Source: Mycobacteriales bacterium
Lineage (GTDB): Bacteria > Actinomycetota > Actinomycetes > BP-191
Assembly: GCA_035714365.1 (NCBI GenBank)
Contig: DASTMB010000037.1
Location: 159,647-223,646 of the forward strand
Direction: 5' to 3'
DNA: 64,000 bases
In this document: one piece after another, positions 3,460 through 36,255 of the stretch
Position numbering within the stretch: the first letter of the stretch is position 1
How the letters are laid out: the number at the start of each line of letters is the position of its first letter
Position numbers and translations under genes: made by a program
The notes under the pieces: model-generated
Database searches by the model: none
Told to the model about the DNA's origin: nothing
Seen by the model: the letters and a program-made list of their open reading frames with translations, nothing else

Positions 3460-5120
3460 ACCCCCGATCCAACCTGAATCACAAGCCCGCCGGCGACGCG
3501 GACACCACCGCCGCGCTGGTCGTCCTCGCCGCCGCCGCAGTCCTCCTACTCGCCGCGGCGCTTACCTGGGCGGCCGGCACCGGGGCGGCGCTCGCCACCG
3601 GCCGCGGCTGGCCCGCCCTCCCGGCCGGGGACGCGCCCGGCGCACTGCTGCGCCTCCCCCACCACCTCACCGACCCGGCCGCGGCGTGGCCCGACCCCTA
3701 CCGGCGCCACCTGCCCGGCCCGGTGCCCTACTACGCCGCGGCGCTCACCCTGCTCACCGCCGCTGGACTGCCGGCCGCCGCCGCGGCGCGGCGCTACCGC
3801 AGCCGGACACCGCAACGCCGGGCGCAGCCGTGGGCGCGCCGCGCCGAGGTTCGGCCGCTGCGCGTCCACGGCACCGCGGAGCCGGGACGGCTGCTGCTCG
3901 GGCAGCTCGGCCGCACCCGCCTCGCCGCGGAACCGCACCGCTCACTGCTCGTCTGCGCGCCCACCCGCGCCGGCAAGACGACCCGCATCGTCATACCGAA
4001 CGTGCAGGCGTGGAACGGGCCGGTGCTAGTCACCAGCGTCAAACCGGACGTGCTACACGCCACCGCCGACGCCCGCGCCGCCCGCGGCCCGGTGCTGCTG
4101 TTCGACCCCACCGGCTCCACCGGGATCGACAGCGTCAAATGGAGCCCGCTGCTCGGCTGCACCACCTACGCCGACGCCGAGCGGGTCGCGCGCTGGCTCA
4201 CCGACGCCGCCGCCGAGAACCGGTCCTCGGACAACGCCCGCTTCTGGGAACAGCTCGGCGCGAAACTCCTCGCGCCGCTGCTCTACGCCGCCGCCGGCAC
4301 CGGCCGCCACATGATCGACGTCGCCCGCTGGGTCGACCGCCGCGCCACCGCCGAACCCGAAGCCGCCCTACTCGGCCTCGGCGACCCCGACGCGCTCGAC
4401 GCGTGGGCCGCCAGCCGCGCCCGCGAAGAACGGCAACGGGAAAGCGTCTACGCCACCGCCGAAACGGTGCTCCGCGCCATCACCAGCCCCAGCGTCCGGG
4501 CCACCACCACCATCCGGCCCGAGGACCACGCCGACGAGCGCGTGTTCGACCCGGCGACGTTCCTCGACCGCGCCGCCACCCTGCACGTCGTCGCGCCGCC
4601 GCACGAACAAGACCGGCTCCGGCCCCTGTTCGAGGCGATCGTGCAGACCGTGCTCCGCGAGGCCGTCACCCGCCACCTCGCCACCGGGCAACCGCTCAAC
4701 CCGCCGCTGCTCGTCGTCCTCGACGAAGCCGCGAACATCGCCCCGCTGCGCGACCTCGCCCGCCACGTCAGCACCTGCGCCGCGCTCGGCGTCACGTTCC
4801 TCACCATCTGGCAAGACCTCGCGCAACTCCACCACCTCTACGGCGCCGAAGCCCGCACCATCGCGAACAACCACACCGGGCGGCTGTTCCTCGGCGGCAA
4901 CGCCGACCTCGACACCCTCACCACCCTGTCGCAGACCATCGGCGACACCACCCGAACCCGCGCCAGCACCACCATCGCCGCGCGGCACCGCTCCACCACC
5001 TACGCCGAACACACCGAACGCGCCGCCCCCGCCGACCAACTCCGCCAACTCCCCCTCGGCCAGGCGCTCCTCCTCTACGGAGGACTCCCACCCATCCGCG
5101 TCCGCCTGCCGCGGCCCTGA
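3456..5120 (+). CDS. Type IV coupling protein (VirD4/TraG/TcpA family)
   Basis: N-terminal TM helices; Walker A LLVCAPTRAGKTT; Walker B LLVVLDEAANIAPL. GTG start overlaps the upstream stop. Confidence 0.75.
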   Translation: MNPRSNLNHKPAGDADTTAALVVLAAAAVLLLAAALTWAAGTGAALATGRGWPALPAGDAPGALLRLPHHLTDPAAAWPDPYRRHLPGPVPYYAAALTLLTAAGLPAAAAARRYRSRTPQRRAQPWARRAEVRPLRVHGTAEPGRLLLGQLGRTRLAAEPHRSLLVCAPTRAGKTTRIVIPNVQAWNGPVLVTSVKPDVLHATADARAARGPVLLFDPTGSTGIDSVKWSPLLGCTTYADAERVARWLTDAAAENRSSDNARFWEQLGAKLLAPLLYAAAGTGRHMIDVARWVDRRATAEPEAALLGLGDPDALDAWAASRAREERQRESVYATAETVLRAITSPSVRATTTIRPEDHADERVFDPATFLDRAATLHVVAPPHEQDRLRPLFEAIVQTVLREAVTRHLATGQPLNPPLLVVLDEAANIAPLRDLARHVSTCAALGVTFLTIWQDLAQLHHLYGAEARTIANNHTGRLFLGGNADLDTLTTLSQTIGDTTRTRASTTIAARHRSTTYAEHTERAAPADQLRQLPLGQALLLYGGLPPIRVRLPRP

Positions 5121-5921: not shown

Positions 5922-6199
5922 CTTGTGGCGCGGCGCGTGCCGCCGGCGACGGAAGATCCACCGCGTCCGCGACGTACGGCCCTCGGCAACCGGCGACCGG
6001 CGCCGCCACCGCAGTCGCCGGTCAGTCCGCTCACGCTGACGCACACGGCAGACTTCGCCAATGTCTTGGGGCGCTCCTTGCGGATCGCGCTGAGTCCCGG
6101 CGGGAGCCGCATTTCCCTTGAATCGCGGTACAGCTCGTCGGCGGTGGCTCCTGCTGCGATCTCGATCTTGTTGTCGTGACCGGGCTCCCACAAAGGGCG

Positions 6200-6214
6200 G
6201 ATTCAGCGCGAATC
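6200..6214. repeat. 15-bp dyad GATTCAGCGCGAATC (copy 2)
   Basis: Exact copy in the 5921-6294 intergenic gap. Confidence 0.6.
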
Positions 6215-6293
6215 ACCCTGTCCGGCGCTGGCGCGGGGACGCGCCCGGGGCCGGTAGGCTCGCCCGGATGTGACGCCGCCGGTTGGAGTCGCG

Positions 6294-7772
6294 TTAGGCG
6301 GCGCGGTGCCAGGCGAAGGTGTCGGGGATTCCGTTGGTGTCGTCGGGGACGAGGTTGGGCGCGGCGCTGCTGAACGCGACGACGGACCCGTCGTCGCTGA
6401 CGGTGGGTTCGATGGCGTTGAGGGTGGCTTGGACGCCGTCGTTGGAGAGGGAGAGGAGTTGGTGCGCGCCGGTGGTCCGGTCGGTGAGGTACACGTCGCG
6501 GCCGCTGTCGTTCGTCACGGCTGGGGTGAGGTCGATGGGGCCGAGGTTGGTGGCAGCGCTTTCGTACGTGATCCAGCGGCCGTTGGCGCTGATCGCGGGG
6601 TTCGCGGAGAACTGGTCGGCGGGCAGCCCGCCGAGGCCGGTGGTGACGCGGCGCAGGGTGCCGGCGATCCGGTCGTAGAGGTAGATGTCGGGGGTGAGGT
6701 CGGGCTGGAGTTCCCGCCCGGCGGCGGTGGGGTCGCCGGGGACGAGGTTGTTGGCTTTGGACTGGAACACGATGTAGCGGCCGTCGCCGCTGAGGGTACG
6801 GTTCCCGCCACGATCAAAGTCGCTGAACGTCGTTTCGTTGTCCGCAGCCCAGCCCTCGGCGGAGCGGGAGATCATCCGGGTGCGCTTGGTGATCCGGTCG
6901 TAGAGAAAGACCTGGGTGAACCCTTCGCCGTTGAGGAACTGTCGGTGGAACGCCCATTCGGGTCCGTAGTCGGTGGTGTCGAAGATCGCCGCGTCGGCGG
7001 TCTGGAAGGTGATCCAGCGGCCGTCATCGGAGATCGACGCGTTGACCTTCTCGAAGCGGTGCGCGCGTGGGTGCGCGGAGCCGACCCGTTCGGTGCGGCC
7101 GGTGGTGAGGTCGCGGACGTAGACGTCCTGGACGAGGTTGTCGCCGTGACCGAGGGGGTCGTGCGGGACGAGGTTCGAGGCGCCGGATTGGAACACGACG
7201 TAGCGGCCGTTGCCGCTGATCGCGGGGTACTGCGCGTACGCGTTGTTCGGTTTGCCGTTGTAGCCGACCGAGACGGGGATGGTGCGGTGGCGCAGCCGGT
7301 CGCGCACGTACACGGCGAGCGTGTTCCCTGCTGGCTTGAAGCCGGGTACGAGCTGCCCGCAGCTGGTGAACGCGACGAACCGGCCGTCGCGGCTGACGGA
7401 GCTGGTTACCGGCGCGTCGGAGCCCTCCAATGTGGGGCAGCCGTGGGTGTCGGCGCTGACGAGTTCGGTGCGCCCGGTAGCGAGGTCCCGGGCGTAGACG
7501 TTGTAGCCGAGGCCGCCGTACCGGGCGGTGAGGCCGCAGTCCGCGGTGAGGCCACTGTCGTTGGAGGTAAAAGTGAGCAGGCGGCCGTTGCCGGACAGCG
7601 CAGGGTGGTCGGCGTAGCCGTACTGGGCGGTGCCTTGGCCGCCGCTGCTGCTCACTGATGCCCGCTCCAGTCGCCCGCTGGTCAGCGGCGGCGCGGCGCG
7701 GGTCGCGGGCGCGGCGGCGGCCACGGCGGCGAGGGCCGCTGCCGTGGCGAGGTGCGCTACCGCGCGCCGCAT
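6294..7772 (-). CDS. Secreted PD40/TolB-like beta-propeller repeat protein
   Basis: N-terminal signal peptide (MRRAVAHLATAAALAAVAAAAPATRA). Repeated ISxDGRxVxFxS ... D[VI]Y[VL]xD blades (DVYVRD, DIYLYD, DVYLTD). Confidence 0.7.
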   Translation of the reverse strand: MRRAVAHLATAAALAAVAAAAPATRAAPPLTSGRLERASVSSSGGQGTAQYGYADHPALSGNGRLLTFTSNDSGLTADCGLTARYGGLGYNVYARDLATGRTELVSADTHGCPTLEGSDAPVTSSVSRDGRFVAFTSCGQLVPGFKPAGNTLAVYVRDRLRHRTIPVSVGYNGKPNNAYAQYPAISGNGRYVVFQSGASNLVPHDPLGHGDNLVQDVYVRDLTTGRTERVGSAHPRAHRFEKVNASISDDGRWITFQTADAAIFDTTDYGPEWAFHRQFLNGEGFTQVFLYDRITKRTRMISRSAEGWAADNETTFSDFDRGGNRTLSGDGRYIVFQSKANNLVPGDPTAAGRELQPDLTPDIYLYDRIAGTLRRVTTGLGGLPADQFSANPAISANGRWITYESAATNLGPIDLTPAVTNDSGRDVYLTDRTTGAHQLLSLSNDGVQATLNAIEPTVSDDGSVVAFSSAAPNLVPDDTNGIPDTFAWHRAA

Positions 7773-7849
7773 GGTTGATCGTCCTCCGTGGCGGAGCCGG
7801 GCCGGCCCCTGGCATGTGCTTTCGACGGCGCCGGCCCGGCTCCCTGCCG

Positions 7850-10800
7850 TCAGGCTCCGGTGTCGGTGCTGCTCGTTGTCGTTGTGGTTCCGGTGACGGT
7901 GCAGCCGCTGGTCGCGCGGGTCTGCCCGTCGAGGTAGCTGGCGTTCGCCGTCCAGCAGACCTCGGCGGTCTCCCCGGCCGCGGGGTCGAACGAGGCGGAC
8001 GCCGGGTCGGTGACGGCCGCCTGGGCGGTGGCCGCGTCACCGGGCGCCGCGGTGTAGCTGCGGACGGGGTTGCCGGCGGCGTCGTGGACGGTGAGGGTGC
8101 AGCCGCTGATCGTCGTGGCGGTGGCGTCGGGTGACGCGGCGGCGGCGCAGCGGAACCCGTAGCCGGTGCTCGCCGGGTTCGTCGCGTCGCTGTCGTTGAC
8201 GCCTTCGTGCGGCGCCGCGCTCACGGCGGCGTCCCCGACGACCGTGTGGTCGGCGAGCGGGTTCGGCAGCACGAGCACCGTGACGGTCACCGGGTCGCCG
8301 AAGTAGGCGCTGTAGAGGCCGCCGGCGTTGCGGCGGATGTCGACGACGGGGCGGAACTGCTCGGTGATGAGCGCGCCCCACCACTTCGAGCCGGTGGGGG
8401 CGCGCAGCACCACGTCGAACACGACCTGCTGCCCGGGCCGGGCGGTGTCGGTGTTCACCGTGGCGCGGCACCGGGAGCAGGCGGTGCTCTTGGGCCAGGT
8501 AGCGGAGTCGTACAAGTCGCTGCTGTGCCCGTCCCGTCCGGCGGTGCCCAGGTAGACGACCTCGTTCGGGTACCAGGGGGCGGTGCGGGCGACGGTGTAG
8601 GCGAAGTGGACGGTCTGGGCGCCGCCGGCCGGGATGAGCAGCGGCGTGCCGACGCTGCCGGTGGCGGCGGCGACGGCGGTGGCGCCGAAGTTGCTGGTGG
8701 AGCGGGTGAGGGTGATCGCGGACCCGGACATCCACGGGCCGCCGTCGGCGACGAGGCGGAACGCGTCGGTGCCGCGGCTGCCGCCGGGGATCGACCCGTC
8801 GGGCTTGTACCGCAACCCGAAGGTGCCGGTGGAGCTGGACGGCGCGAAACCGGCGGGTTCGACGACCCCGAGACGGCCGGCGGAGAGCATCGTGGCGCGG
8901 CGGCAACTCAGCCACGGGTTACTCGCGTCGCGGGACGGGTCGGCGCTGCCGCCGACCGGCGGGTCGGCGACCGGACTGCACTGGTCGACGGCGCCGCTGC
9001 TCTGGTCGACGACACCGAGGCGGGTGGCGTGCGCGCCGCTGGCGAACCACGGCATGTTGCCGGTGTTCGTCACGGCGACGGCGCCGCTGGTGTAGCGGTG
9101 CCCGCGGGTGTACGTGCCGTCCGGCTCGGTGTGCGGGCGCGTCTTGGTGACGACGCGGTAGCTGTACCGGGGAGTGAACCCGCCGTAGGTGCAGCCGCCG
9201 GTCGCTCCGTCGTTGGACCACAGGTAGGTGACGCCGTTGGGGCCGACGGGCAGGTTCGCGCACAGGTCGGCGTTCTCCTGGCCGCGGCCGTCGAGCCACG
9301 CGTCGAGGTGCGGGTCGGTGACGGTCTCGGCGTACTCGTGGGACGCGACCTGCCGGAGCCCGTTCGAGGTGCCGCCGACGACGGTGCCGCATCCGTAGGT
9401 CCAGTCGTAGACCGGGGTGCGGCCGGGGAAGTTGATGCCGCTGTAGGCCATGTACTTCGTGCCGCCGCTGGTGCCGCCGCCGACCGTGGCGTAGGTGTGG
9501 AAACCGCACGGGAACCGCTGCTCGCCGCTGCTGACGAGCGGCGAGCCGGGCTGGAGAAACACCATGAACTGCGCGTCGGTGCTGATCGGCCAGCGATTCG
9601 CCTTCGCCGCCCGCAGCGCCTCCGCGGCGAGGTCACCGGACTGCGTGACCGCCGGCGGGCTGCTGGTGTCGACCCACGTGCCGCCGACGCGCATCGTGGC
9701 GGACACCGCGCCGGTGCTGTCGTAGTGCTGGCTCAACACGGCCTGGAAACCGCTGCTGTTCATGCTGGCGAACATCGCCGCGATGTCGCCGCGGTAGCCG
9801 GTCAGCGCCGGCCACTTCGGCCCCCAGAAGATCGGGTACACCACGGGGTGGTGCTGCACGGCGCCACCGTTCCAGCGCAGCGGCGGCGCGCAGGGTTCAG
9901 CGTTGCGGGTGTAGCAGCGGCCCTTCACGACACCGGTCGCGTCGAGGTCGCCGACCGCCGTGAGCGCCCCGGCCGTCGCCGTGGCGCTGGCGCCGGGGGC
10001 CGCGGCGGGGGGCTCGTCGTGGGTGACCGGCGCGGGCGCGGCGGTGACGTCCTCGGCGCTGATCTCCCACTCGGGCGCGCCCACGTGGACGCCGCCGCCG
10101 GCGTCGGCGGCGAGCAGGGCGTCGAGCGTGTCGTGCAGCTCGGTGGCGGCGTCCCCGGTCGCCGCCAACGCTGCCCCGGCGTCAGCCACGCCCGCGACCT
10201 GTCCGCCCAGCGCGATGAGGAGCTGGTCGCCGTCGGCGAGCGCGGCGTGGATACGCGCGGTCGGCAGGATCGGCAGGGGGCGGGAGAGGACGACCTGGGC
10301 GGCGCCCACGGTGTCGAGCAGGTCGGCGGGCGTCGGTAGGCCGGTGACGACCTCGTCGGCGACGGCGCCGGCCTGAGCCGCGACCGCGGTCGCGACGGCG
10401 CTCAGCCCATCGACGACCGCGGCCGGGTCCGTCGGTTGGACGGTGCCGATCGCGTCGGTGCGCACCCACGTCGTCGCCTGCACGGCGCTGACGCGCAGCG
10501 CGTCGAGGGCGACCGCGGCGCCGCCCGCCCAGGCGGTGAGCGTGGCGAGGGCCTGGTCGAGGTCGACCTGCGGCAACGCGGCGCGCAGCGCGGTGCTCCG
10601 CTGGGCGGACAGGGACGTGCGGTAGTCGTTGAGGGTCGCGACGTCGCGCTGCGCGCTGTTCGGTGTCGCGGCGTCGATGAGGTGGGTGAGGTCGGCGACC
10701 GCGGTGAGGGCAGGCAGCCAGGCGGTGACGTCGGTGCTGGCGGCCAGCGGTGTCGCCTCGGCGGCCAGGGCCGGCGGCGGCAACACGGCGGTGACGCACG

Positions 10801-10873
10801 CGAACGCCGCAGCGGTCAGCGTGAGCGTCGCCGCCCGGCGCCGCCACCTGGTGCGGATGAGTCTGCTGGACAT
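7850..10873 (-). CDS. Large secreted protein (1007 aa), function unknown
   Basis: Internal ATG at 10873 gives a signal peptide (MSSRLIRTRWRRRAATLTLTAAAFACVTAVLPPPALAAEA). Upstream part of the track ORF is P/S/T/R-rich junk. Ala-rich helical N-domain, a central Gly/Trp/Tyr-rich domain (VVYPIFWGPKW, HEYAETVTDP) and beta-rich C-terminal domains. Confidence 0.55.
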   Translation of the reverse strand: MSSRLIRTRWRRRAATLTLTAAAFACVTAVLPPPALAAEATPLAASTDVTAWLPALTAVADLTHLIDAATPNSAQRDVATLNDYRTSLSAQRSTALRAALPQVDLDQALATLTAWAGGAAVALDALRVSAVQATTWVRTDAIGTVQPTDPAAVVDGLSAVATAVAAQAGAVADEVVTGLPTPADLLDTVGAAQVVLSRPLPILPTARIHAALADGDQLLIALGGQVAGVADAGAALAATGDAATELHDTLDALLAADAGGGVHVGAPEWEISAEDVTAAPAPVTHDEPPAAAPGASATATAGALTAVGDLDATGVVKGRCYTRNAEPCAPPLRWNGGAVQHHPVVYPIFWGPKWPALTGYRGDIAAMFASMNSSGFQAVLSQHYDSTGAVSATMRVGGTWVDTSSPPAVTQSGDLAAEALRAAKANRWPISTDAQFMVFLQPGSPLVSSGEQRFPCGFHTYATVGGGTSGGTKYMAYSGINFPGRTPVYDWTYGCGTVVGGTSNGLRQVASHEYAETVTDPHLDAWLDGRGQENADLCANLPVGPNGVTYLWSNDGATGGCTYGGFTPRYSYRVVTKTRPHTEPDGTYTRGHRYTSGAVAVTNTGNMPWFASGAHATRLGVVDQSSGAVDQCSPVADPPVGGSADPSRDASNPWLSCRRATMLSAGRLGVVEPAGFAPSSSTGTFGLRYKPDGSIPGGSRGTDAFRLVADGGPWMSGSAITLTRSTSNFGATAVAAATGSVGTPLLIPAGGAQTVHFAYTVARTAPWYPNEVVYLGTAGRDGHSSDLYDSATWPKSTACSRCRATVNTDTARPGQQVVFDVVLRAPTGSKWWGALITEQFRPVVDIRRNAGGLYSAYFGDPVTVTVLVLPNPLADHTVVGDAAVSAAPHEGVNDSDATNPASTGYGFRCAAAASPDATATTISGCTLTVHDAAGNPVRSYTAAPGDAATAQAAVTDPASASFDPAAGETAEVCWTANASYLDGQTRATSGCTVTGTTTTTSSTDTGA

Positions 10874-10970
10874 GGTGTAGGGCCTCCCTGATCCGTGGTG
10901 GAGGCGCCGACCGCGAAAGGCGACGAACGCTGCGCATCCGCGCAGCGACCCCCGTCTGTCGTTCGCCGCC

Positions 10971-11771
10971 TCATTGCACGTACAACGGCGGCCACGCCGC
11001 CGCCCCGTGTGGCGGCACCGATTCGCCCGTCGGTGTCGCGTCTCCTGCGCGTGATGGTGCAACCGGCGCCGACGCGCCAGTGTCCGCGTCGTGGCGTGGT
11101 GCGGACGTGAGGACGCCGTTGCGTCCGGTGAACACCCGGTGCGCTGGCAGGTACCCGCCTGGGTGCTCGGGTTGGTGCGCGACGAGGACGCTCGTGTCCT
11201 CCCGGTCCGTGGTGACCGTGATCGCGGCCGTCGCCTCGGCGCGTGCCGCCCGGTTGAGGGTGTCGAGGAGCCCGTCGACGAGGAGCAGCCGGGGCCGCGC
11301 CGCGACCGCGACCGCCAGGGCGAGCAACGCGGCGTCGTCGGGGTTGAGCGACGAGGAGGCGCGGTCACGTCGCGCGGCGAGGGTCGGGAACCGGTCGAGG
11401 ACCTGTGCGATCCGCCGCGCCCGCGCCGCCGCGTCGCCGTTCCAGGGCTGGTGTCGCGCCGCGCCGAGCGCGAGCCACGCGGTGACGGGCGCGGCGTTGG
11501 GCGCGGCGGGGGTGGCGACGTACTCGACGCCGGCGCGGCGACGCTGGGCGGGGGTGAGGGTGAGCAGGTCGGTGTCGTCGTTGAAGGCGGCCGATGCGCC
11601 GATGGGGGGCAGGGCACCGGCGAGAGTACGGAGCAGCACCGACCCGGTTCGGTCACCGTGAATCACGATGATCGCACCGGTCGGTACGTCGAGGTCCAGC
11701 CACCCGACCGCGCCGGGGCGCAGCCGCACGCCGACCGACCGCAACGCGATCACCAGACCTACCTCGCTCAC
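10971..11771 (-). CDS. ABC-ATPase-like protein with a degenerate Walker A (predicted catalytically inactive)
   Basis: IIVIHGDRTGSVLLRTLAG replaces the GxxGxGKS/T P-loop. LSLNPDDAALLALAVAVAARPRLLLVDGLLDTL resembles the ABC signature/Walker B with D substituted by G after the LLLVD stretch. First gene of the minus-strand chain. Confidence 0.45.
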   Translation of the reverse strand: MSEVGLVIALRSVGVRLRPGAVGWLDLDVPTGAIIVIHGDRTGSVLLRTLAGALPPIGASAAFNDDTDLLTLTPAQRRRAGVEYVATPAAPNAAPVTAWLALGAARHQPWNGDAAARARRIAQVLDRFPTLAARRDRASSSLNPDDAALLALAVAVAARPRLLLVDGLLDTLNRAARAEATAAITVTTDREDTSVLVAHQPEHPGGYLPAHRVFTGRNGVLTSAPRHDADTGASAPVAPSRAGDATPTGESVPPHGAAAWPPLYVQ

Positions 11772-11848
11772 CGTGTGCGTCCGGCGCGTCGATGTGGCGC
11801 CGTCACCCGGGACACCGCGCGACCCCCCGGATTTGGGACACCGGCGCG

Positions 11849-11863
11849 GATTCAGCGCGAATC
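11849..11863. repeat. 15-bp dyad GATTCAGCGCGAATC (copy 3)
   Basis: Exact copy in the divergent promoter region 11771-11988. Confidence 0.6.
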
Positions 11864-11987
11864 AGCGGCCGTACCCACCGCGCCGCTGGGGGGTGAGCTG
11901 CCGGGGCGATGTGTCAGGTATCTGACAGATCCGGCCGTCCGGCGGGGTCACCCTCGACCACATCGGTAGTAGGGGGAGGCGGCCGGC

Positions 11988-12941
11988 ATGGACCGCACCA
12001 AGCAGTGGAGGGTGGCGGACCGGCACCGGGTGGAACTGGTCCGCTACCTGACGGCCCGCACCGGCGCCGCGGACATCGCCGAGGACGCCGCCGCGGAAGC
12101 GATCGCGGCCGCCGGGTCCGCTCATCTCCGCGACGAGCAGCACGCGCAGGCGTGGCTGCGCCGCGTCGGCTGGCATCGCTGCGTGGACGAGTTCCGGCAC
12201 CGCCGCACCCCGGAGTCGCTGTCGCGGGTCGCGGCGCCGTCGTCGACGCCCAGTGCGGAGGAGGTCGCCCTTGAGCATGACCTGGCGGTCCGGGTCCGGG
12301 CCGCGGTGGCGACGTTGCCGCCGCAGCAGCGCGTGGTCGTCACCGCCTACGCGCAGGGTGAGACGGTGCGGGTGATCGCTGCGCGACGGCGGCAGACCGT
12401 GAAGGCGGTGGAAGCGCAGCTCACTCGCGGGCTGGCGCGGGTGCGCGACGCGCTCAACGCGGGGGTCGCCGTGGTGTCGGGTCGGCTGCGGCTTCGCCGC
12501 GCTGCCGCGGTGTCGGCGGCGTCGATGGTCGTCACGGTCAGCGCCGCGCTGTGGCTCGGCGCGACCATCCCGGCGCCGGCCGCCACCTCCGGCGCGGCCG
12601 CCCACCCGGTGCGGTCGGACGCGTCCGGCGCTGTCGTCCGCGTCACCCACCGGGAGCGCACGCCAGCGGCGCGCCCGCAGTCGCCGGCGCCGCCGCACCG
12701 GCGGCCGCACCGCACGCCTGCCGTCCACCGGGCGGGGCACCGCGCGGCGTCGACGCTGCTCGCCCCGCCCGGGGTCACGGGTCCGGCCGGTATCTCGGTC
12801 CAACCGGGCAGCGTGGATCGGGACGGCGGCCGTCTCGGTGACGGGTTCGTCGCCGACGTGCTCGCCTGCATCGGGCATGGCGTGCGGGTCGAGGAGCAGC
12901 GGGTGTCGTGTCGGCCCGACGCCACCGTCTACATGCTGTAG
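11988..12941 (+). CDS. ECF sigma factor with a C-terminal TM helix and extracytoplasmic extension (membrane-tethered sigma/anti-sigma-like fusion)
   Basis: Region 2 (ELVRYLTARTGAADIAEDAAAEA ... AWLRRVGWHRCVDEFRHRR). Region 4 HTH (LPPQQRVVVTAYAQGETVRVIAARRRQTVKAVEAQLTRGLARVRDAL). Hydrophobic helix AAAVSAASMVVTVSAALWLGA, then ~130 aa. RBS GGGGGAGG upstream of the ATG. Confidence 0.65.
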   Translation: MDRTKQWRVADRHRVELVRYLTARTGAADIAEDAAAEAIAAAGSAHLRDEQHAQAWLRRVGWHRCVDEFRHRRTPESLSRVAAPSSTPSAEEVALEHDLAVRVRAAVATLPPQQRVVVTAYAQGETVRVIAARRRQTVKAVEAQLTRGLARVRDALNAGVAVVSGRLRLRRAAAVSAASMVVTVSAALWLGATIPAPAATSGAAAHPVRSDASGAVVRVTHRERTPAARPQSPAPPHRRPHRTPAVHRAGHRAASTLLAPPGVTGPAGISVQPGSVDRDGGRLGDGFVADVLACIGHGVRVEEQRVSCRPDATVYML

Positions 12942-13363
12942 CCGACGACGATGCCTTCGCTGCCGGGCTGCCACTTGAAGATCGCGGAGATCGGCGTCGG
13001 CGGGTCGACGTCGCTGCGGTAGGTGAACAGCACGTCGTAACTTCCGGTGTCGGCGCCGTTCTTCGGCACCGTCCAGCAGACCTGCGCGGTCGGCTGCGTC
13101 GCCGTCGACGTCGTGTAGTTGATCGCGGTGCCGTTGCTGCGCGCGCCGGTGAACTCGATGGTCCACAGCGGCCCGGTCGTGGGCGGGACCCGCAGTTCGC
13201 CGTTGCCGCAGATGGTCTGTCCGCTGGTGGTGAACGACGCGGTGAACCACATGTGCGGCCGTTCCACCTGGGGCAGCGGATCGGTGTCCGCGTGGGCGCC
13301 GTGGGCGGTGAGGAGGGTTCCGGCGGCCGTGGACGCGACGAGCACGACGCGGGCGACGCGCAT
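12929..13363 (-). CDS. Small secreted protein (144 aa), unknown function
   Basis: Signal peptide MRVARVVLVASTAAGTLLTAHGAHA. Immediately downstream of, and co-directional with, the sigma-fusion gene. Confidence 0.5.
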   Translation of the reverse strand: MRVARVVLVASTAAGTLLTAHGAHADTDPLPQVERPHMWFTASFTTSGQTICGNGELRVPPTTGPLWTIEFTGARSNGTAINYTTSTATQPTAQVCWTVPKNGADTGSYDVLFTYRSDVDPPTPISAIFKWQPGSEGIVVGYSM

Positions 13364-13381
13364 GGAGAACCTCCGGACGGG

Positions 13382-14500
13382 TCAGCCTCCCGGCGGCGGG
13401 GGGAGGGGAACATCGTAATGCGGGTCCCCGTCGGTTCGGCACTGTACGGCGTCCTGCTGCTCGGGCACCCACGGGCAGACGGGGGCGACCTCTTCCTGGA
13501 CCTCGAATCCGGGCACCGCGGAGACGCTGAGCACGTCGGCGTTCACCGGTGACGTGGTGCAGGTCGGCTGTCCGTCGATCGGCACGCACGCCCCGACCTC
13601 CCCGTCGGGCAGCGCGCCCGGCAGTCGCGGCAGCCGCACGCCGGTCACGAGCCGGCGGGCCGCTGCTGCCGGTGCCCGGCGCAGCAGCCGGCGCGCGGTG
13701 CGGGTCACCCCCACCGCGTCGCCGGTCGCGACCGCGGCGGCGGCGTCGCCGACACCATCGAGGACCCGGGCGACGGCGCGGGGGACCCGGTGCAGCGAGA
13801 TCGGCACCGGCAGTGGCTGTGTGGCGACGGCGGTCATGAAGACGCCGACCAGCGCCGCGTTCGCCACCGCGACCATCGCCGTCGACACCGCCCCGGGTGC
13901 GGCCGACCGGCGCCGAAGCCGGCCCCGCAGCGCGGCGAGGAACGCGGCGATGAGCCCGCCCCGTTGGCGCACGGCGTGCAGCGCCCGCGTCACCCGTTTC
14001 CGCGTCGCGGCCTCGGTCAGTCCCGTCTCGTCCGCGAGTTGGGAGTACGGCGCGGCGTCCACGTAGCGGCGGCGCAGCAACTCCTGCACCTCGGCGGGCA
14101 GCTCCTCGTAGGCCATGACGACGCGCGTCGCCGCGGTGACCCGCGGGGTCGCCCATAGCGAGACCGCGCCGTCCGGCGGATACGGGACCAGGGCCGGGCG
14201 GCGCCGCGCCCGCCGCCGCGCGTCCGTCGCCGCGTGACGTGCCGCGGTGAACAGCAGCGCGCGCCGGTGGTCGTCGTCAGTCAGCGCCGCCCACGACCGG
14301 TACACCGCGAGGTAGGCGCGCTGCGCCACGTCGTCACACTCGCTGCGATCCACGTACGCCAGTGACGACAGGAAGCGGTAGAGACCCGCGACCGTCTCGG
14401 CGTGGAACTCCTCGAACTCGCGCCCGATCCCCCGCGCGGTCTGACACGCGACCACCGACTGCCCCTTCACGTCCACGCCGCAGGCTGCGGCCACCCGCAC
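13382..14500 (-). CDS. ECF sigma factor fused to a TM helix and a Cys-rich C-terminal domain
   Basis: Region 2 (FEEFHAETVAGLYRFLSSLAYVDRSECDDVAQRAYLAVYRSW). Region 4 (LPAEVQELLRRRYVDAAPYSQLADETGLTEAATRKRVTRALHAVRQR). Hydrophobic segment AVSTAMVAVANAALVGVFMTAV. C-terminal domain with six Cys. Confidence 0.6.
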   Translation of the reverse strand: MRVAAACGVDVKGQSVVACQTARGIGREFEEFHAETVAGLYRFLSSLAYVDRSECDDVAQRAYLAVYRSWAALTDDDHRRALLFTAARHAATDARRRARRRPALVPYPPDGAVSLWATPRVTAATRVVMAYEELPAEVQELLRRRYVDAAPYSQLADETGLTEAATRKRVTRALHAVRQRGGLIAAFLAALRGRLRRRSAAPGAVSTAMVAVANAALVGVFMTAVATQPLPVPISLHRVPRAVARVLDGVGDAAAAVATGDAVGVTRTARRLLRRAPAAAARRLVTGVRLPRLPGALPDGEVGACVPIDGQPTCTTSPVNADVLSVSAVPGFEVQEEVAPVCPWVPEQQDAVQCRTDGDPHYDVPLPPPPGG

Positions 14501-14577: not shown

Positions 14578-14610
14578 CGTGGAACTTGTGCCGCTGACAC
14601 AAGTTCCACG
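14578..14610. promoter_or_regulatory. Perfect 13-bp inverted repeat CGTGGAACTTGTG-N7-CACAAGTTCCACG in a divergent promoter region
   Basis: Lies in the lower-GC gap between the sigma-fusion gene (minus, start 14500) and the LuxR gene (plus, start 14827). Confidence 0.5.
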
Positions 14611-14826
14611 AGCGTCCACCCCCCGACCGGGTAGATCCTCGACGGAGCGCCACCTCCCCCCGGTGGCGCTCCCCGCCCGTCGGCGAAAGTCCGCACTCCT
14701 TCGCCGAGGTGTCCCAAAAGGCGCCCCCGCGGCGGTGTCACGGGTGGGACCGGGCGTTTCTGTAGGGGCGCCCGGTCCCCCTCACCCGGCGCGAACCGAC
14801 GCGCCGCCCGTCCAGGGGGAGTCCCC

Positions 14827-15759
14827 ATGCCCGACCTAACCGCCGTCGGCATCACCGCCGACGACGAACCCGTCTACCGCGTCCTGCTCGACACCGACCG
14901 GCACCTCACCGTCGACCAGCTCGCCGCCGCCCTCGACCAACCGACCCGCGCCGTCGAGGACGCGATCGAACGACTACAACACCGCGGCTTCGTCGCCGAC
15001 GACGACCACGGCGCCGTCACCGCCGTCCCGGCCTGCGTCGCCGTCACCCGCGCCGCCGCGCGCCGGGAACAGGTTCTGCTCGACCAGCTCGCCGCGGTAC
15101 GCCGCGCCCGCAGCCAGTACACCGCCACCGCGCTACCGGTCGACCCGAGCCCGCACAGCGGCTCCCCGTTCCTCGGCATCATCACCGACCCCGGCGAACT
15201 GCACCGCTGGCGTAGCCGCGTCGCGGCGATGGCCGTCGATACCCTGCGCCGCACCGTCGTCGACGACGCGCCGCTACCCGAGCACGACCCCGACGTCGTG
15301 CGATTCGACCTGTATCAGCAGTCGGCGCTCACCGACGCCACCCGCCTCGCCGCGATCGACGACCCCGACCGGGGGCACCAGGTCCACGTCGTTGCCGCGC
15401 CGCTGCCCCCGCTGCTCATCGCCGACACCACAGTCGCCCTGTTCGAGCTCGGCCCGAGTAGCGGGTTCGTGCTCTACCCGTCGCGGCTCCTCGACGCGCT
15501 GCACGACTACTTCGCCCTCCTGTGGCGCGCCGCCGTGCCCATAGGCGCCCGCGACCCGGAAGGAGCCTGGCAACTCGACCAGGACCGGCGGCGGCTGCTG
15601 CGCCTACTCGCCACCGGCGCAAAGGACCAGGCGATCGCGCACCTGCTCGGCCTCGGATTGCGGACCGTCACCCGCCAGGTTGGTGAACTCCTCCGCGCCT
15701 TCGACGTGGAGACCCGCTTCCAACTCGGGGTGCAGGCCGCTGTCCACGACCTGCTCTAG
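14827..15759 (+). CDS. LuxR-family transcriptional regulator (paralog A)
   Basis: C-terminal GerE/LuxR HTH (RRRLLRLLATGAKDQAIAHLLGLGLRTVTRQVGELLRAFDVETRFQL). N-terminal winged-helix-like segment. RBS GGGGGAG before the ATG. Confidence 0.65.
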   Translation: MPDLTAVGITADDEPVYRVLLDTDRHLTVDQLAAALDQPTRAVEDAIERLQHRGFVADDDHGAVTAVPACVAVTRAAARREQVLLDQLAAVRRARSQYTATALPVDPSPHSGSPFLGIITDPGELHRWRSRVAAMAVDTLRRTVVDDAPLPEHDPDVVRFDLYQQSALTDATRLAAIDDPDRGHQVHVVAAPLPPLLIADTTVALFELGPSSGFVLYPSRLLDALHDYFALLWRAAVPIGARDPEGAWQLDQDRRRLLRLLATGAKDQAIAHLLGLGLRTVTRQVGELLRAFDVETRFQLGVQAAVHDLL

Positions 15760-15862: not shown

Positions 15863-16321
15863 ATGCAGTGCGCCACGCCCACCGACGACGCGACGCGCCA
15901 CCGCGCGGTCCAGCGACCGCTGGTCGAGCCCGACGTGGTGGAGTCGCTGGCCCGCACCGCCGGGGAGCTGCTCGACCTGCACGCCGGCGTCCGTGACGTG
16001 CAGGTGAAAGCGGAGCAGGCGACCCGCGACGTCGCCGAGGCGTTGAAGGCGGTGCTGCGTCTCGCCGCGGTCGGCTCCCCGGTGGAGGCGTTCGCGCCGC
16101 TGGTCGACGCGGTGGACCGGGCGATCCTCACCGCCCTCCTCGAAGGAGTGTCGGCGCGGGCGCTGCCCGGGCGCGTCGGGTTGAAGAAGCATGTGGTGCG
16201 GGAGCGGGTCGCGCGGATGAAGGTCCTCACCGGCGCGGACACGCTGTTCCAGCTCGGTGTCGCCGCGGGCGCGTTCGGCTGGGTCGACCCGCCGCAGACA
16301 CCCGCCGACACCGAGTCCTGA
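15863..16321 (+). CDS. Small LuxR-type HTH protein
   Basis: C-terminal LTALLEGVSARALPGRVGLKKHVVRERVARMKVLTGADTLFQLGV resembles a GerE HTH. RBS CAGGAG. Confidence 0.45.
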   Translation: MQCATPTDDATRHRAVQRPLVEPDVVESLARTAGELLDLHAGVRDVQVKAEQATRDVAEALKAVLRLAAVGSPVEAFAPLVDAVDRAILTALLEGVSARALPGRVGLKKHVVRERVARMKVLTGADTLFQLGVAAGAFGWVDPPQTPADTES

Positions 16322-18860: not shown

Positions 18861-19820
18861 GTGCTGGAACCGCTCGGCGTGACGGAGGTCGATGAGGCTG
18901 TCTACGAACAGGTCCTCGCCGCCGGCGCGGCGACCGACGCTGACCTCGCGCGGACGACCGGCCTCGACCGGACGGCGGTGAGCGCCGCCCTCGCGCAGCT
19001 CCAGCGGCTCGGCCTGGTCAACCGCCTCGCCACCGCGGAGCAGACTGTGGTGGCGCTACCGCCCGCCTTGGCGATCGAGGCGTTAGCGTTCCGCCGCTAC
19101 CGGGAAGTCGACGAGGCCCGCGCCGCCGCCGAGCGGTACGCGCGGCTGCACCAGCAGCGCCCCACTGGTGACGCCGCCGTCGGCTACGTCCAGGTTGTGC
19201 AGGGGGCGGCGGCGCTGTTCCAGCAGTCCACCCAACTCCAGCTCGGCGCCCGCGAGCAGATGCGGGTGTTCGACCGGCCCCCCTACGCCCGGGTCGAGAG
19301 CGTGGTCGAGGAGACGACGCTGCTCTCCCGCGGTGTCCGCTGCCGCGCCGTCTACGACCCCTGCGGCGATGCCGGCCGTTGGTCCGCCGCGGTGGCTGGC
19401 GGGGAAGATGCCCGGCTCGCGACCACCGAGTTGCCGATGAAGCTCGGCATCGCCGACGACACGCTCGCGCTGATCCCTCTCCTCGACGACGCCCACGTCC
19501 GCGAACCCACCGCGCTCCTCGTCCGCCCCTCGACCCTTCTCGCCGCGCTCATCGACTTGTTCGAGTCTCACTGGCAGCGCGCCGCCCCGATCCGCAGCGA
19601 CGGCTCCGTCGACACCGACGCCACTGCGCAACTCCCAGCCGACACCGGGCTCATCGCATCCCTGCTCGTCGCCGGCGTCACCACCGACGCCATCGCCCGG
19701 CAACTCGGCATCACCCGCCGGACATTGCACAACCACATCGACGCCGCGAAGGCCGCGCTCGGCGTCGACAACAAGTACCAACTCGTGCTGCGCGCCAAGG
19801 AACTCGGCCTGCTCGACTGA
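18861..19820 (+). CDS. LuxR-family transcriptional regulator (paralog B)
   Basis: GTG start with GGAGG 10 nt upstream. N-terminal HTH-like segment (DADLARTTGLDRTAVSAALAQLQRLGLV). C-terminal LuxR HTH (DAIARQLGITRRTLHNHIDAAKAALGVDNKYQL). Same architecture as 14827..15759. Confidence 0.6.
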   Translation: MLEPLGVTEVDEAVYEQVLAAGAATDADLARTTGLDRTAVSAALAQLQRLGLVNRLATAEQTVVALPPALAIEALAFRRYREVDEARAAAERYARLHQQRPTGDAAVGYVQVVQGAAALFQQSTQLQLGAREQMRVFDRPPYARVESVVEETTLLSRGVRCRAVYDPCGDAGRWSAAVAGGEDARLATTELPMKLGIADDTLALIPLLDDAHVREPTALLVRPSTLLAALIDLFESHWQRAAPIRSDGSVDTDATAQLPADTGLIASLLVAGVTTDAIARQLGITRRTLHNHIDAAKAALGVDNKYQLVLRAKELGLLD

Positions 19821-19868: not shown

Positions 19869-20822
19869 TCAGCGGCCTCGCGGTGTCGGAACGGGCAGCG
19901 GGTAGCCGAGCGGGTCGGAGCAGGGCGGCACTTCCGCGGGCGGGCGGATATCCGCGGGCACGAGCGTCGTGGTCACCGTCGCAACCTCGGTGGGGGCGCT
20001 GGGCAGCGGCCCGGTGCGGGTGGGTTCCGGCGGGGTGAGGGGCGGCTTGGTCTCTAGTTGGAGGATCACCGGGTCCCCGTTGGCGTCGAGGACGGGGCGG
20101 CCGCAGCGGTCCACGATCCCGCTGCGCAGCGGCCGCGGCGGGCCGTGCCGGTGGCCCGGTCCGACGATCAACGACGTGCCGCCGGCGACGAGCAAGGCGA
20201 CGACCGCGCCGGTGAGGACCCGCCCGACGAGCAGGGTCATGCCGCGGCGGGCCACGCGGGCACCGGGCCGGGGTGCGGCCTGGTGGCTCGGTTCTGCCGC
20301 TGGGGTGGGGAGGGGCCGGCGGTGCGGGTCGGGCGGGAGCTGGGGTGGCACGAGGTGGACGACCTTCCGGGCGCGGAACGGCGGGATGAGGCCGCGGGCG
20401 GTGATGGTGACGGACAGGTGGGTGATGCGCCGCGCGGTCGGCATGGTGAACGCGCTGAGGCGGTACCTCTGTCCGGCGCGTAGCGGGAACGAGGGGACGA
20501 TGTTGAACAGCGCGTAGTGCTCGTCATCGACTGCGCCGAGGCGCTGATGCAGCGCGGCGATGAGCCGCGGCCCGGTCGGATAGGTCGTCGGCTGCTCGTC
20601 CCGGTCGACGGCGAGCTGGTAGCAGACGCGGGTCACGACGGCGGGTCCGAGGCCGCTGTTGGTGAGGTGGGTGACCCACGCGCCCGCGTCATTGCCATGG
20701 TCGACGAGTGGCGCGGGCGCGTAGGGATCGGATGCGGCGACGGAGCCGAGCAGCGGCCGCGCGAGCAGCCCGGCGAGCAGCCACGCGGTGGCGGCGAGTG
20801 CGGCCGCTGCTGCGGCGATCAT
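19869..20822 (-). CDS. Membrane protein (two TM segments), unknown function
   Basis: ATG overlaps the stop of the upstream protease gene (ATGA). TM MIAAAAAALAATAWLLAGLLARPLL and TM LLVGRVLTGAVVALLVAGGTSLIV. Confidence 0.5.
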   Translation of the reverse strand: MIAAAAAALAATAWLLAGLLARPLLGSVAASDPYAPAPLVDHGNDAGAWVTHLTNSGLGPAVVTRVCYQLAVDRDEQPTTYPTGPRLIAALHQRLGAVDDEHYALFNIVPSFPLRAGQRYRLSAFTMPTARRITHLSVTITARGLIPPFRARKVVHLVPPQLPPDPHRRPLPTPAAEPSHQAAPRPGARVARRGMTLLVGRVLTGAVVALLVAGGTSLIVGPGHRHGPPRPLRSGIVDRCGRPVLDANGDPVILQLETKPPLTPPEPTRTGPLPSAPTEVATVTTTLVPADIRPPAEVPPCSDPLGYPLPVPTPRGR

Positions 20823-22252
20823 CCGTCGGTGGTCTCGACGCCGGAGAGGCCGAGGGCCTTGGTGGCCGCGTACATCGGCGTGTAGTACTTGCGGGTGGTG
20901 ACGCTCCCGGGGCGGGTGCCGCCGCTGTGGATGCCGTCGGCGCGGTACTTGCACACCCGGGTGCCGAAGACGCTTCCGCCGCTATCACCGGGGGCGGAGT
21001 AGTAATCCGTCATGTTCTGCTCGACGAGGGTGGTCTGCCGCTTCGTGTCCGGGTCGGTGTAGGTCACGGAGGCGTGGGTGCGGAGCAGCTTGCCGGTGCG
21101 GTAGCCGCCGGTGCGGGCACCGGAGATGATCTCCAACTGCCCCTTCTTCACGTCGGTCGTCATCATGCAGTGGATGCGGCGGTAGTCGCCCGATTCGACC
21201 GCGACCTCGTTCGACTTGTAGGCGGGCTGGGCGATCGCGATGGAAAGCGCGTCGGCGTTCGTGCCGCTGTGGTACTCGTTGAACTGGCTCTGCCCGATCA
21301 CCTGGTTGCGCTGGAACCACACCGCGCCGCTAACGCCCTCGTCCAACTCGTTGGTCTCGCAGTGGCCGGCCGTCAGAAGGTAGTAGGTGTAGTCGAAGAC
21401 GGCCGGGACCTCGCTCCGTTCGACGTGGTAGGCAACGAAGGCGGAGGTGCATTGCGCCTCGTACCGGGGGTTCTCCGGCAGCGGCCGGTTGACGAGCTGG
21501 CCGCCTCGGAACGGCGGGGCGTTCGGCCCGTCGATGCCGTCGAGCACCGGTCGGTCCTCGTACTCGACCTTGATGGGTGAGCCGGAGAAGCGGGACTCGA
21601 TCACGTTGCGGGCGCGGGTGGTGTCGCTGGCGGCGGCGACGTAGACGGTGTTCGCCTCCTCGTCGATCGAGGTGCTGGTGACATCGACGCTGTTCGCGCG
21701 CAGCTCGCTCGCCGCCTGGTCGACGGCGTGCTGCACGGCGTAGAGCTGGTCGAGGGAGTAGTGCATGAGCTCGACGTGCCAGATCGCGGTCGTCTGCCCG
21801 ATCCGCGCCGCCAGCTCCTGCTCGACCTGCGTCTTGTTGGCGGTGACGCCGACACCGACGAGACCCTTGGCCTGGTCGATCCACGCCCCGGCGTAGATCT
21901 CGCGGTGCGCCTTGAAGTAGTCGTCGATGACGGCGGTGACCTGGTCGACGGCGTTGGTGCGGGCGTCGAGGATCGCCGCCTCGTCTGGGGTGACGATGCC
22001 GCCGACGTCGGTGCTGGCCTGGATCAGGCCGGCGCGGGCGTCGTCGAACAGCTTCTTCACGTAGGGGCGGTCGGCGCGCAGACCCGCCTCGGCACGGAAG
22101 CGCATGTCGTTGACGAGCTGCTGGTCAGTCGCGGCGGGCACGGTCGGGTTGCGGTAGGGGCCGCTGCGCGGCTGCGCCGACGCCGTGGTGGTTCCGGCGA
22201 GGGCCAGCGCGAGCGCGGTGACGGCGGCGATCCGCCGAGGACGCAGGTTCAA
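20819..22252 (-). CDS. Secreted S1-family serine protease of the alpha-lytic protease / streptogrisin type, with N-terminal pro-region
   Basis: Signal peptide. Catalytic His context LTAGHC and Ser context GDSGGS. ~190-aa pro-domain. Confidence 0.8.
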   Translation of the reverse strand: MNLRPRRIAAVTALALALAGTTTASAQPRSGPYRNPTVPAATDQQLVNDMRFRAEAGLRADRPYVKKLFDDARAGLIQASTDVGGIVTPDEAAILDARTNAVDQVTAVIDDYFKAHREIYAGAWIDQAKGLVGVGVTANKTQVEQELAARIGQTTAIWHVELMHYSLDQLYAVQHAVDQAASELRANSVDVTSTSIDEEANTVYVAAASDTTRARNVIESRFSGSPIKVEYEDRPVLDGIDGPNAPPFRGGQLVNRPLPENPRYEAQCTSAFVAYHVERSEVPAVFDYTYYLLTAGHCETNELDEGVSGAVWFQRNQVIGQSQFNEYHSGTNADALSIAIAQPAYKSNEVAVESGDYRRIHCMMTTDVKKGQLEIISGARTGGYRTGKLLRTHASVTYTDPDTKRQTTLVEQNMTDYYSAPGDSGGSVFGTRVCKYRADGIHSGGTRPGSVTTRKYYTPMYAATKALGLSGVETTDG

Positions 22253-31523: not shown

Positions 31524-31606
31524 GGTGGCGTTCTCCTTGGTGAGAGTGGGTTGGGTGGGGTGGCGCGCGGGTGGCGGCGGTGCGCGGGCGGTTCGGCGGG
31601 GGCGGG

Positions 31607-36117: not shown

Positions 36118-36219
36118 CGCGCAGAACACGGCTGCCAGGCTGTGGGCGCGCGCTGACGCGTTCGTGCAAACCCGCTGGTTCGGATGGAGTGTGGTGTTAG
36201 GCCGCGCGGTGAGATCCAA

Positions 36220-36255
36220 CATATCGGTACGCGGTGACGCGCGACCGCCGATATG
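36220..36255. promoter_or_regulatory. Inverted repeat CATATCGG-N20-CCGATATG in the lower-GC leader of the DUF3800 gene
   Basis: 8-bp arms; lies about 60 nt upstream of the TTG start at 36315. Confidence 0.35.

Follow-up and report, generated by a model that had tools for sequence, protein, structure and literature searches.

Two putative membrane-tethered ECF sigma factors, one with an obligate secreted partner, among the conjugation genes of an uncultured actinobacterium

The sigma locus and its coding status

The DNA analysed here, referred to as the window, is a 64-kb stretch (contig DASTMB010000037.1, positions 159,647 to 223,646) of ~74% GC from a 335-kb metagenome contig (JGI 3300034009 Ga0334944_000010), part of a metagenome-assembled genome named Mycobacteriales by NCBI. 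It contains a locus of three open reading frames (ORFs). Two of them, sig1 on the forward strand and sig2 on the reverse strand, encode extracytoplasmic function (ECF)-type sigma factors; the third is a small ORF for a secreted protein, called the partner below, which lies on the reverse strand between them and at its 3' end shares 13 nt with the end of sig1 (Table 1). An initial annotation of this DNA had read both sigma factors as membrane-tethered, one-component transmembrane signalling devices. Our analysis partly supports that interpretation, the general form of which is not new.

Both sigma ORFs are continuous. The JGI, ENA and Logan assemblies of the contig give identical calls for the ORFs of the locus, and GC content at third codon positions (GC3) ranges from 0.83 to 1.0 over the full length of sig1 and sig2, including the portion that follows a hydrophobic helix in each protein. 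Because GC3 remains uniform past this helix, no frameshift has fused two genes. The suspicion that a frameshift or an assembly error joined an ECF sigma gene to a downstream anti-sigma gene is a natural one for a sequence from a metagenome assembly, as sigma/anti-sigma gene pairs are the commonest arrangement. It is effectively refuted by the agreement of the three independent assemblies, by the uniform GC3 across the junction, by the lack of an anti-sigma domain in the extension and by the recurrence of the same fused length and layout in at least 12 divergent relatives from unrelated samples (12–13 independent clusters of the sig2 family). The gene boundaries and uninterrupted frames of the initial annotation are thereby borne out. 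A strong Shine-Dalgarno sequence, GGGGGAGG, lies 8 nt ahead of the sig1 ATG. For sig2, an in-frame alternative start at GTG 14455 is accompanied by a Shine-Dalgarno-like AAGGGG element.

Table 1. Positions in the window of the sigma locus, candidate regulatory elements and conjugation genes
Feature	Position	Strand	Size	Description
VirB4-like ATPase (AAA_10)	2224..3459			
Type IV secretion system (T4SS) coupling protein	3456..5120			VirD4/TraG-type
TTTGGGACAC	11832..11841	+		147 nt upstream of the sig1 ATG
Palindrome TGTCAGGTATCTGACA (GATGTGTCAG-N4-CTGACAGATC)	11908..11931	.		upstream of sig1
sig1	11988..12941	+	317 aa	ECF-type sigma factor (ORF, GC3, Pfam, NCBIfam, hydropathy); sigma2 ~11-73, sigma4 ~102-157, predicted transmembrane helix 172-194, linker 195-270, 2-Cys module ~271-311
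sig1 predicted transmembrane helix	12501..12569	+		residues 172-194, after RLRLRR; Kyte-Doolittle 19-residue mean 1.84
Small secreted partner	12929..13363	-	144 aa	second gene of the sig2 operon
sig2	13382..14500	-	372 aa, possibly 357 aa from GTG 14455	ECF-type sigma factor; sigma2 ~27-101, sigma4 ~125-181, short juxtamembrane helix 184-199, predicted transmembrane helix ~204-227, Ala/Arg/Pro-rich linker 228-300, 4-Cys C-terminal module 301-372
sig2 C-terminal Cys module	13385..13600	-		residues 301-372; family alignment
sig2 predicted transmembrane helix	13820..13891	-		residues ~204-227, after RGRLRRR; Kyte-Doolittle mean 2.07
Palindrome CGTGGAACTTGTG-N7-CACAAGTTCCACG	14578..14610	.		perfect 13-nt arms, between the 310-aa HTH gene and sig2; candidate operator
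TTTGGGACAC	14709..14718	-		~209 nt upstream of the sig2 GTG
Divergent helix-turn-helix (HTH) regulator	14827..15759	+	310 aa	N-terminal TrmB-like winged helix, C-terminal LuxR/GerE-like HTH
Putative small HTH protein	15863..16321	+	152 aa	AsnC-type HTH matches weak
TrwC relaxase-helicase	25095..28766		1223 aa	
ParB-like protein	29715..32036		773 aa	

The two sigma cores

Sig1 and sig2 are divergent members of the ECF (group 4) sigma-70 proteins, each with a sigma2 and a sigma4 domain. Sigma70_r4_2 of Pfam scores 29.5 bits on sig1 and 27.2 bits on sig2, above its curated cut-off of 25.7, while the corresponding scores of Sigma70_r2 (21.6 and 23.4) fall slightly under the cut-off of 24; these are the only Pfam matches in the two proteins, with no sigma1.1 and no sigma3. 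Among the relatives of sig2 described below, Sigma70_r2 is matched by 11 of 12 members and Sigma70_r4_2 by 10 of 12. A profile of the sig2 family aligns with ECF sigma factors of solved structure (SigE, SigL, SigH and RpoE) with E values down to 6e-27, through profile positions 8-181 only, and AlphaFold2 models sigma2 and sigma4 of sig2 at a predicted local distance difference test (pLDDT) score of ~90. In NCBIfam, TIGR02937 scores 36.7 (sig1) and 38.3 bits (sig2), under its cut-off of 42.9. The best curated model for both, spanning the whole sigma core, is TIGR02983 (SigE-fam_strep) at 45.2 and 60.2 bits, far from the 141.55 bits that define its members, so neither protein belongs to that family.

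BLASTP detects no similarity between sig1 and sig2. The proposal of two tethered sigma factors at one locus thus stands as to their presence, and fails if a duplicated pair is meant: as judged from sequence, sig1 and sig2 appear to be members of two unrelated-looking families and not detectable paralogues. A pattern common to both tails can be picked out by eye (ITV.PG ... V..C-x11-13-C-R/P-x-D, found also in P0055, another sigma factor with a 2-Cys tail), and hhalign gives it a probability of 1.4%; we do not claim homology of the tails.

When 1.84 billion representative proteins were scanned exhaustively with HMMER, ~12–13 clusters of 348–428 aa emerged that align end to end with sig2. In every one of them the helix has the same location, the Pro/Ala-rich linker varies, and ~70 residues at the C terminus form a module. 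Word-indexed protein searches with sig1, sig2 or the family alignment found the query itself, P0003, P0026 and little else. Searching 72,556 plasmids by tblastn with sig2 and the partner gave nothing, and a scan of the JGI metagenome collection with the sigma-subfamily alignment gave generic ECF cores only and no sig2 family. The family is rare and so far known from metagenomes only. Sig1 has a single known full-length homologue, P0003 (47% identity), on a contig from the same sequencing run.

A predicted membrane-spanning helix and a Cys-bearing tail

With a Kyte-Doolittle mean of at least 1.6 over 19 residues as the criterion for a helix, exactly one segment in each of sig1 and sig2 lies above the threshold, in both cases after a run of Arg. 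The sig1 helix has an Eisenberg mean hydrophobicity of 0.61 and a moment of 0.06, with four Lys/Arg before it and none after it; the values for the sig2 helix are 0.68 and 0.02. As mean hydrophobicity is high and the moment close to zero, the helices are predicted to be membrane-spanning and not amphipathic. The sigma core must be cytoplasmic, and the tail is therefore predicted from the domain order to lie outside (N-in/C-out). An equivalent segment is found in all members of the sig2 family; its consensus includes a conserved polar residue and Gly (Q-A-A-x-V-G) and it ends in APP..VP at the exit. The annotated order of ECF regions 2 and 4 followed by a hydrophobic helix is hence confirmed for both proteins by Pfam, NCBIfam and hydropathy, and for sig2 also by AlphaFold2.

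A C-terminal domain of 130–150 aa had been annotated after the helix. What we found in place of a folded domain of that size are 123–145 residues consisting mostly of a low-complexity linker of Ala, Pro and Arg and a short Cys module, with conservation confined to ~70 residues in sig2 and ~40 in sig1. The linker of sig1 is basic and rich in Pro, Ala and His. Two of the three Cys of sig1 (C294 and C308) are within the extension, and comparison with P0003 shows the last 40 residues to be well conserved (GDGFVAD..AC....R[VI]SCRPD) and the linker after the helix poorly so. The count of six Cys given for sig2 holds for the form that starts at GTG 14455; from GTG 14500 there are seven, at positions 7, 19, 55, 305, 314, 342 and 354, and just four of them are located in the extension.

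The consensus of the sig2 module is P..C(x2-8)C..PGD..TV.V....V....V.VC..VP.....TC.T.G.P.Y.VPPPP, in which C314, C342, P346 and C354 are invariant across the family alignments and a poly-Pro tail closes the protein. Mean pairwise identity in the family is 40% for the Cys module and 29% for the sigma core. Each full member has four Cys; P0026 and P0123 lack the first one and have another ~20 residues downstream. The tail of sig2 appears functional because the module is better conserved than the sigma core, three Cys are invariant and the total is always four. An even total together with a relocated first Cys is the pattern expected for disulfide pairs in an exported domain, and the module probably holds two disulfide bonds.

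The same four conserved Cys and the Arg-rich linker could also point to a hydrophobic segment that fails to cross the membrane, or to a peripheral protein, the tail then being a cytoplasmic metal or redox sensor comparable with the published Cys-rich cytoplasmic extensions of CorE-type ECF238 and of ECF287/288 (PMC7826278; PMC8999054). We consider this very unlikely. Hydrophobicity and moment are of the membrane-spanning type in all 15 proteins, the Cys spacing (x2-8, x9-17) is not knuckle-like, the Cys number is always even, two members having their first Cys at another site, and the obligate partner of the sig2 type is a secreted protein.

Neither protein shows an anti-sigma domain. The zinc-finger (ZAS) motif H-x3-C-x2-C does not occur in sig1, sig2 or any relative; zf-HC2, RskA and FecR of Pfam match none of the 12 sig2-family members (zf-HC2 searched at E up to 1); the extensions of sig1, sig2 and the family members contain no Pfam domain at all; and no anti-sigma-like gene neighbours sig1 or sig2. 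Sigma4 is separated from the helix by only 15–25 residues in sig1, in sig2 and throughout the sig2 family. With no anti-sigma domain and so short a spacer, nothing other than the tether itself is visible that could inhibit the sigma factor.

Location as the sole inhibition would also suit a sigma factor that is active while tethered and, with no proteolysis, recruits RNA polymerase to the membrane in the way of ToxR or CadC. In structures of ECF holoenzymes the C terminus of sigma4 is exposed to solvent, which makes such a tether conceivable. Transcription of transfer genes might perhaps be coupled in this manner to the place where the T4SS is assembled, and the outer module would act through conformation or oligomerisation. 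This alternative seems unlikely, as 15–25 residues leave little space at the membrane surface to fit both DNA and a holoenzyme, the helix has conserved destabilising polar, Gly and Pro residues, and all characterised membrane-fused sigma factors cited in PMC8999054 are activated by cleavage.

The secreted partner

The partner gene begins 18 nt past the sig2 stop codon, with GGAGG 7 nt ahead of its ATG. Its product has a signal peptide ending in AHA|D and a mature part of ~115 aa that includes the invariant residues C52, C96, W67 and W131. We examined all ten sig2-type loci for which downstream DNA is available (the window, L005 twice, L006/7, L008/9, L012, L013, L095, L096 and L097). In all ten, a partner homologue of 137–149 codons lies directly downstream on the same strand, after a gap of 14–55 bp, and signal peptides with AxA-type cleavage sites as well as two invariant Cys are present throughout. 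A hidden Markov model (HMM) built from seven partners recognised the three held out at E=3e-21, 2e-20 and 2e-7; it matches exactly once per sig2-type sigma gene, and the rest of the 64-kb window gives no match. The three sigma factors with 2-Cys tails (sig1, P0003 and P0055) have no partner in their own operons (0/3). Contrary to the initial annotation, which placed a small secreted protein near each sigma factor, there is thus a single such gene, on the sig2 strand, and it is an obligate partner of the sig2 type only.

No sequence in Pfam or the PDB matches the partner. AlphaFold2, run on an alignment of eight sequences, models it as an all-beta sandwich of eight strands with a pLDDT of 80 overall and ~90 in the core, and Foldseek relates this model only to generic immunoglobulin (Ig)-like sandwiches (ApaG, CsgC/CsgH and a proteinase inhibitor) at E values of at least 1.5e-3. 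The partner is accordingly predicted by modelling to be an Ig-like beta-sandwich. Divergence of sigma factors and partners is correlated (Mantel r=0.62, p=0.001).

The pair recurs on T4SS-type elements

The sigma locus sits between the genes for the VirB4-like ATPase and the coupling protein on one side and those for TrwC and the ParB-like protein on the other (Table 1). Wherever the flanks of related loci are long enough, conjugation or integration genes are present: VirB4 and a coupling protein in L005, TrwC in L008, Replic_Relax and TrwB in L013 and a tyrosine integrase in L095. Between the window and L005, VirB4 is 80% and the coupling protein 67% identical; for TrwC, compared with L008, the value is 59%. 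By comparison, identities within the module are 27–32% for the sigma factor, 32–48% for the partner and 37–38% for the HTH protein. Since the backbone is shared and the module is far more diverged, the module travels with the element family and diverges much faster than its backbone. In place of the element cargo of the initial annotation, the locus thus resembles a recurrent regulatory module of a T4SS-type conjugative element family; judged from these comparisons, the sigma-partner locus looks like a regulatory or specificity module and not an incidental passenger.

L005 carries two sig2-type sigma-partner pairs ~3.5 kb apart within 6001..12128 (355 aa with 143 aa, and 370 aa with 137 aa), which are ~28% (sigma) and ~42% (partner) identical to each other. 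Two membrane-tethered sigma factors per element, as in the window, is therefore an arrangement that recurs. The backbone genes of the window mark the element as T4SS-type, not FtsK/TraB-type, in an actinobacterium.

A model for signalling by sig2 and its partner

We propose, with a probability of about one half, that sig2 and its partner form a two-gene membrane-tethered signalling unit of the T4SS-type element, in which proteolytic release of the sigma factor would be gated from outside. The sigma2/sigma4 core is predicted to be held in the cytoplasm ~20 residues from an N-in/C-out helix, and a basic, disordered linker of ~75 residues to present the ~70-residue Cys module outside the membrane. 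This close tethering would keep sig2 from productive use by RNA polymerase. An outside signal would be sensed through the Cys module, with the secreted partner serving as a binding partner, either protector or ligand. RseB acts in this way on RseA, whose periplasmic domain it binds, blocking cleavage at site 1. In the proposed sequence, site-1 cleavage would occur in the exposed basic linker, followed by a cut within the membrane by a host site-2 protease, and the released, active sigma factor would turn on genes of the element. Substrates of site-2 proteases carry helix-destabilising polar, Gly and Pro residues, and the polar, Gly and Pro residues conserved in the helix and exit of the sig2 family would be as expected for such substrates. 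The 310-aa and 152-aa HTH proteins would control transcription of the operon through the intergenic palindromes. Sig1 may be a second, independently derived tethered ECF sigma factor with a simpler 2-Cys tail, presumably working in the same mode with no partner.

A 477-aa protein with a weak Trypsin-domain match, encoded 6 kb from the sigma locus (20819..22252, reverse strand), would be a candidate for the protease that cuts the Arg-rich linkers at site 1.

Several observations weigh against the proposed unit. The extramembrane linker of sig2 is 15% Arg, which is atypical of translocated segments, and the positive-inside bias is modest family-wide (31 versus 18 Lys/Arg in the flanking 15 residues). 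AlphaFold2 gave no confident fold for the Cys module of sig2 (pLDDT <50). The module contains no conserved protease gene, and the short flanks of the relatives show no counterpart of the trypsin-like gene. No shared bipartite ECF-type promoter was found upstream of the sig2-family operons. In a mirror-tree comparison the partner correlates no more strongly with the Cys module than with the sigma core (partial r 0.31), so that co-inheritance alone explains the correlation. That sig2 is cleaved, that its Cys module binds the partner and that it has a regulon of element genes are inferences.

The mirror-tree result would also fit a partner that is output and not input: the first gene of the regulon, encoding a surface, adhesion or entry-exclusion protein that makes no contact with the Cys module. 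ECF sigma genes often lie in operons with their own targets, the Foldseek matches are generic Ig-like sandwiches as in surface and inhibitor proteins, and the module diverges faster than the backbone, as surface-specificity proteins often do. We regard this as possible but less likely than the proposed unit. The strict pairing argues against it, because the partner accompanies the 4-Cys tail at ten of ten loci and the 2-Cys tail at none of three, which links it to the tail and not to the core; gaps of 14–55 bp and GGAGG are, in addition, a translational arrangement typical of stoichiometric partners.

A further, more speculative reading is that sig2-type sigma factors and their partners make up a fast-evolving, element-specific extracellular receptor-ligand pair for conjugative self-sensing or for sensing of the envelope or of neighbours. 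We consider this doubtful. If true, it would be a protein-based self-sensing switch that decides when transfer functions are expressed, wired to a tethered sigma factor free of any anti-sigma, with a logic analogous to that of the peptide-signal systems of Gram-positive conjugative elements.

Relation to known tethered and Cys-rich sigma factors

Sigma factors that are C-terminally tethered to the membrane and released by proteolysis have already been proposed for the actinobacterial groups ECF48, ECF52 and ECF53 (PMC8999054; PMC7826278; bioRxiv 10.1101/2019.12.11.873521), ECF52 being exemplified by SCO4117 of Streptomyces coelicolor (PMC8999054; PMC5826349; bioRxiv 10.1101/2019.12.11.873521). 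For IutY there is experimental proof that sequential proteolysis by Prc and RseP sets the active sigma factor free (PMC8999054). Of the one-component tethered sigma factor envisaged in the initial annotation, the architecture of ECF core, single helix and extracytoplasmic tail stands, and the general idea had been published for ECF48/52/53 and IutY.

Like sig1 and sig2, the members of ECF48, ECF52 and ECF53 are actinobacterial, join an ECF core to a transmembrane C-terminal extension and have no separate anti-sigma gene; other points in common are the number of helices (one, or one to two), an outer domain, a Pro-rich stretch outside the cytoplasm and a proposed proteolytic activation. They differ in being described with a zinc-finger (ZAS) anti-sigma domain that lies between sigma4 and the membrane (all of ECF52 and ~30% of ECF53), which sig1 and sig2 lack. 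Their extensions reach 350–400 aa, in contrast to the 40–70-residue Cys motif without Pfam match found here, and the extracytoplasmic carbohydrate-binding domains of ECF52 (NPCBM/NEW2 and ricin-type) have no counterpart by Pfam in the extension of sig1 or sig2. Unlike for the sig2 family, no conserved secreted partner or link to conjugative elements has been reported for these groups.

IutY of Pseudomonas putida (ECF243) also combines sigma factor, transmembrane segment and outer sensing domain in one polypeptide. It differs in being proteobacterial, in acting in cell-surface signalling with a TonB-dependent receptor and in having a FecR-like anti-sigma part, for which no Pfam match exists here. 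The Escherichia coli RpoE-RseA-RseB system has the same order of sigma factor, membrane tether and secreted modulator, the first two being fused in the present case; this likeness is one of logic only, with no relation in sequence or fold, the partner here being an Ig-like sandwich of ~115 residues. ECF238 (CorE/CorE2), ECF287 and ECF288 resemble sig2 in having conserved Cys in a C-terminal extension, which is however soluble and cytoplasmic in these groups and senses metals or redox state, whereas the Cys module of sig2 comes after a transmembrane helix and a linker of 75 residues. The actinobacterial group ECF287 has an ~80-aa extension of unknown fold, no anti-sigma factor and MerR/TetR neighbours (PMC7826278). 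Sig2, by contrast, is flanked by a TrmB/LuxR-like HTH protein and a secreted protein, and by these features does not fall within ECF287.

In the literature searched, we found no account of actinobacterial conjugative elements that carry an ECF sigma factor together with an obligate secreted partner. What is new here is the combination in one family of a missing anti-sigma domain, a Cys module that is conserved, a secreted Ig-like protein as obligate partner and linkage to T4SS-type elements. For a decade, ECF sigma factors whose fused extensions span the membrane have been known as predictions, and very few of them have been investigated. In all the actinobacterial groups described so far, a zinc-finger anti-sigma domain is believed to be built in; the sig2 family would be the minimal case, well suited to finding out whether a sigma factor is silenced by tethering alone and by what route it is freed. 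Through the obligate secreted partner the extracellular input becomes open to testing, and the recurrence of the pair among conjugation and integration genes, on contigs assigned to uncultured actinobacteria where they carry a name, suggests a layer of regulation in horizontal gene transfer that no paper found in our searches describes.

Neighbouring HTH genes, candidate operators and other features

The 310-aa HTH protein encoded divergently from sig2 has sub-threshold Pfam matches to TrmB and HTH_23. It is 37–40% identical to the products of genes divergent from the sigma gene in L005 and L009, and is seen at three of the ten loci. Scanning genomes with an alignment of this protein led to two Streptosporangiales loci, at neither of which a sigma gene of this kind or a partner is present; the distant relatives in Sphaerisporangium melleum and Microbispora oryzae are unlinked to such a sigma gene. 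A second paralogue of ~310–320 aa (18861..19820, forward strand; TrmB-like/GerE-LuxR-like) is encoded within 5 kb and is 29% identical to the first. Homologues of the 152-aa HTH protein adjoin the sigma-partner pair in L005, L095, L012 and L096, which makes five loci with the window.

The exact 10-mer TTTGGGACAC occurs twice in the window, each time upstream of and co-oriented with a sigma gene, and L009 has TTTTGGACAC at a comparable distance from its own sigma gene. From its sequence and placement, the 10-mer may be a shared operator or promoter element; no convincing -10 partner for it was found. In L006 and L012 a T-run is followed by TGTCGGG-NN-CCCGACA. The 326-bp region between the 310-aa HTH gene and sig2 contains, besides the palindrome of Table 1, two more perfect inverted repeats of 11 nt (14644..14672 and 14746..14779). 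GGAAC is the core of the typical ECF -35 element, and it is contained in the repeat at 14578..14610. A comparable G-loop hairpin is present in the corresponding intergenic region of L005. The palindrome upstream of sig1 is kept as TGTCGGATATCTGACA upstream of P0003 in L001 (~4975..4995) and is likely an operator for a dimeric regulator. Between 11600 and 15000, neither a sigma-70-type promoter nor an intrinsic terminator was found.

PADLOC assigned no defence model to sig1, sig2, the partner, the two HTH proteins or two proteins encoded upstream. The latter are a 1007-aa secreted protein (7850..10873) and a 266-aa protein with an ABC-ATPase-like look (10971..11771), both on the reverse strand, divergent from and immediately upstream of sig1; they have no Pfam match either and are not conserved in the related loci. 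ARAGORN reports a tRNA-Arg(GCG) at 46056..46134 (forward strand) inside a long high-GC3 ORF (43200..46808), so that either the tRNA is a false positive or the ORF call is wrong. GC content dips to 0.645 over 36001..38000, against ~0.74 elsewhere, which may mark an element boundary or an insertion.

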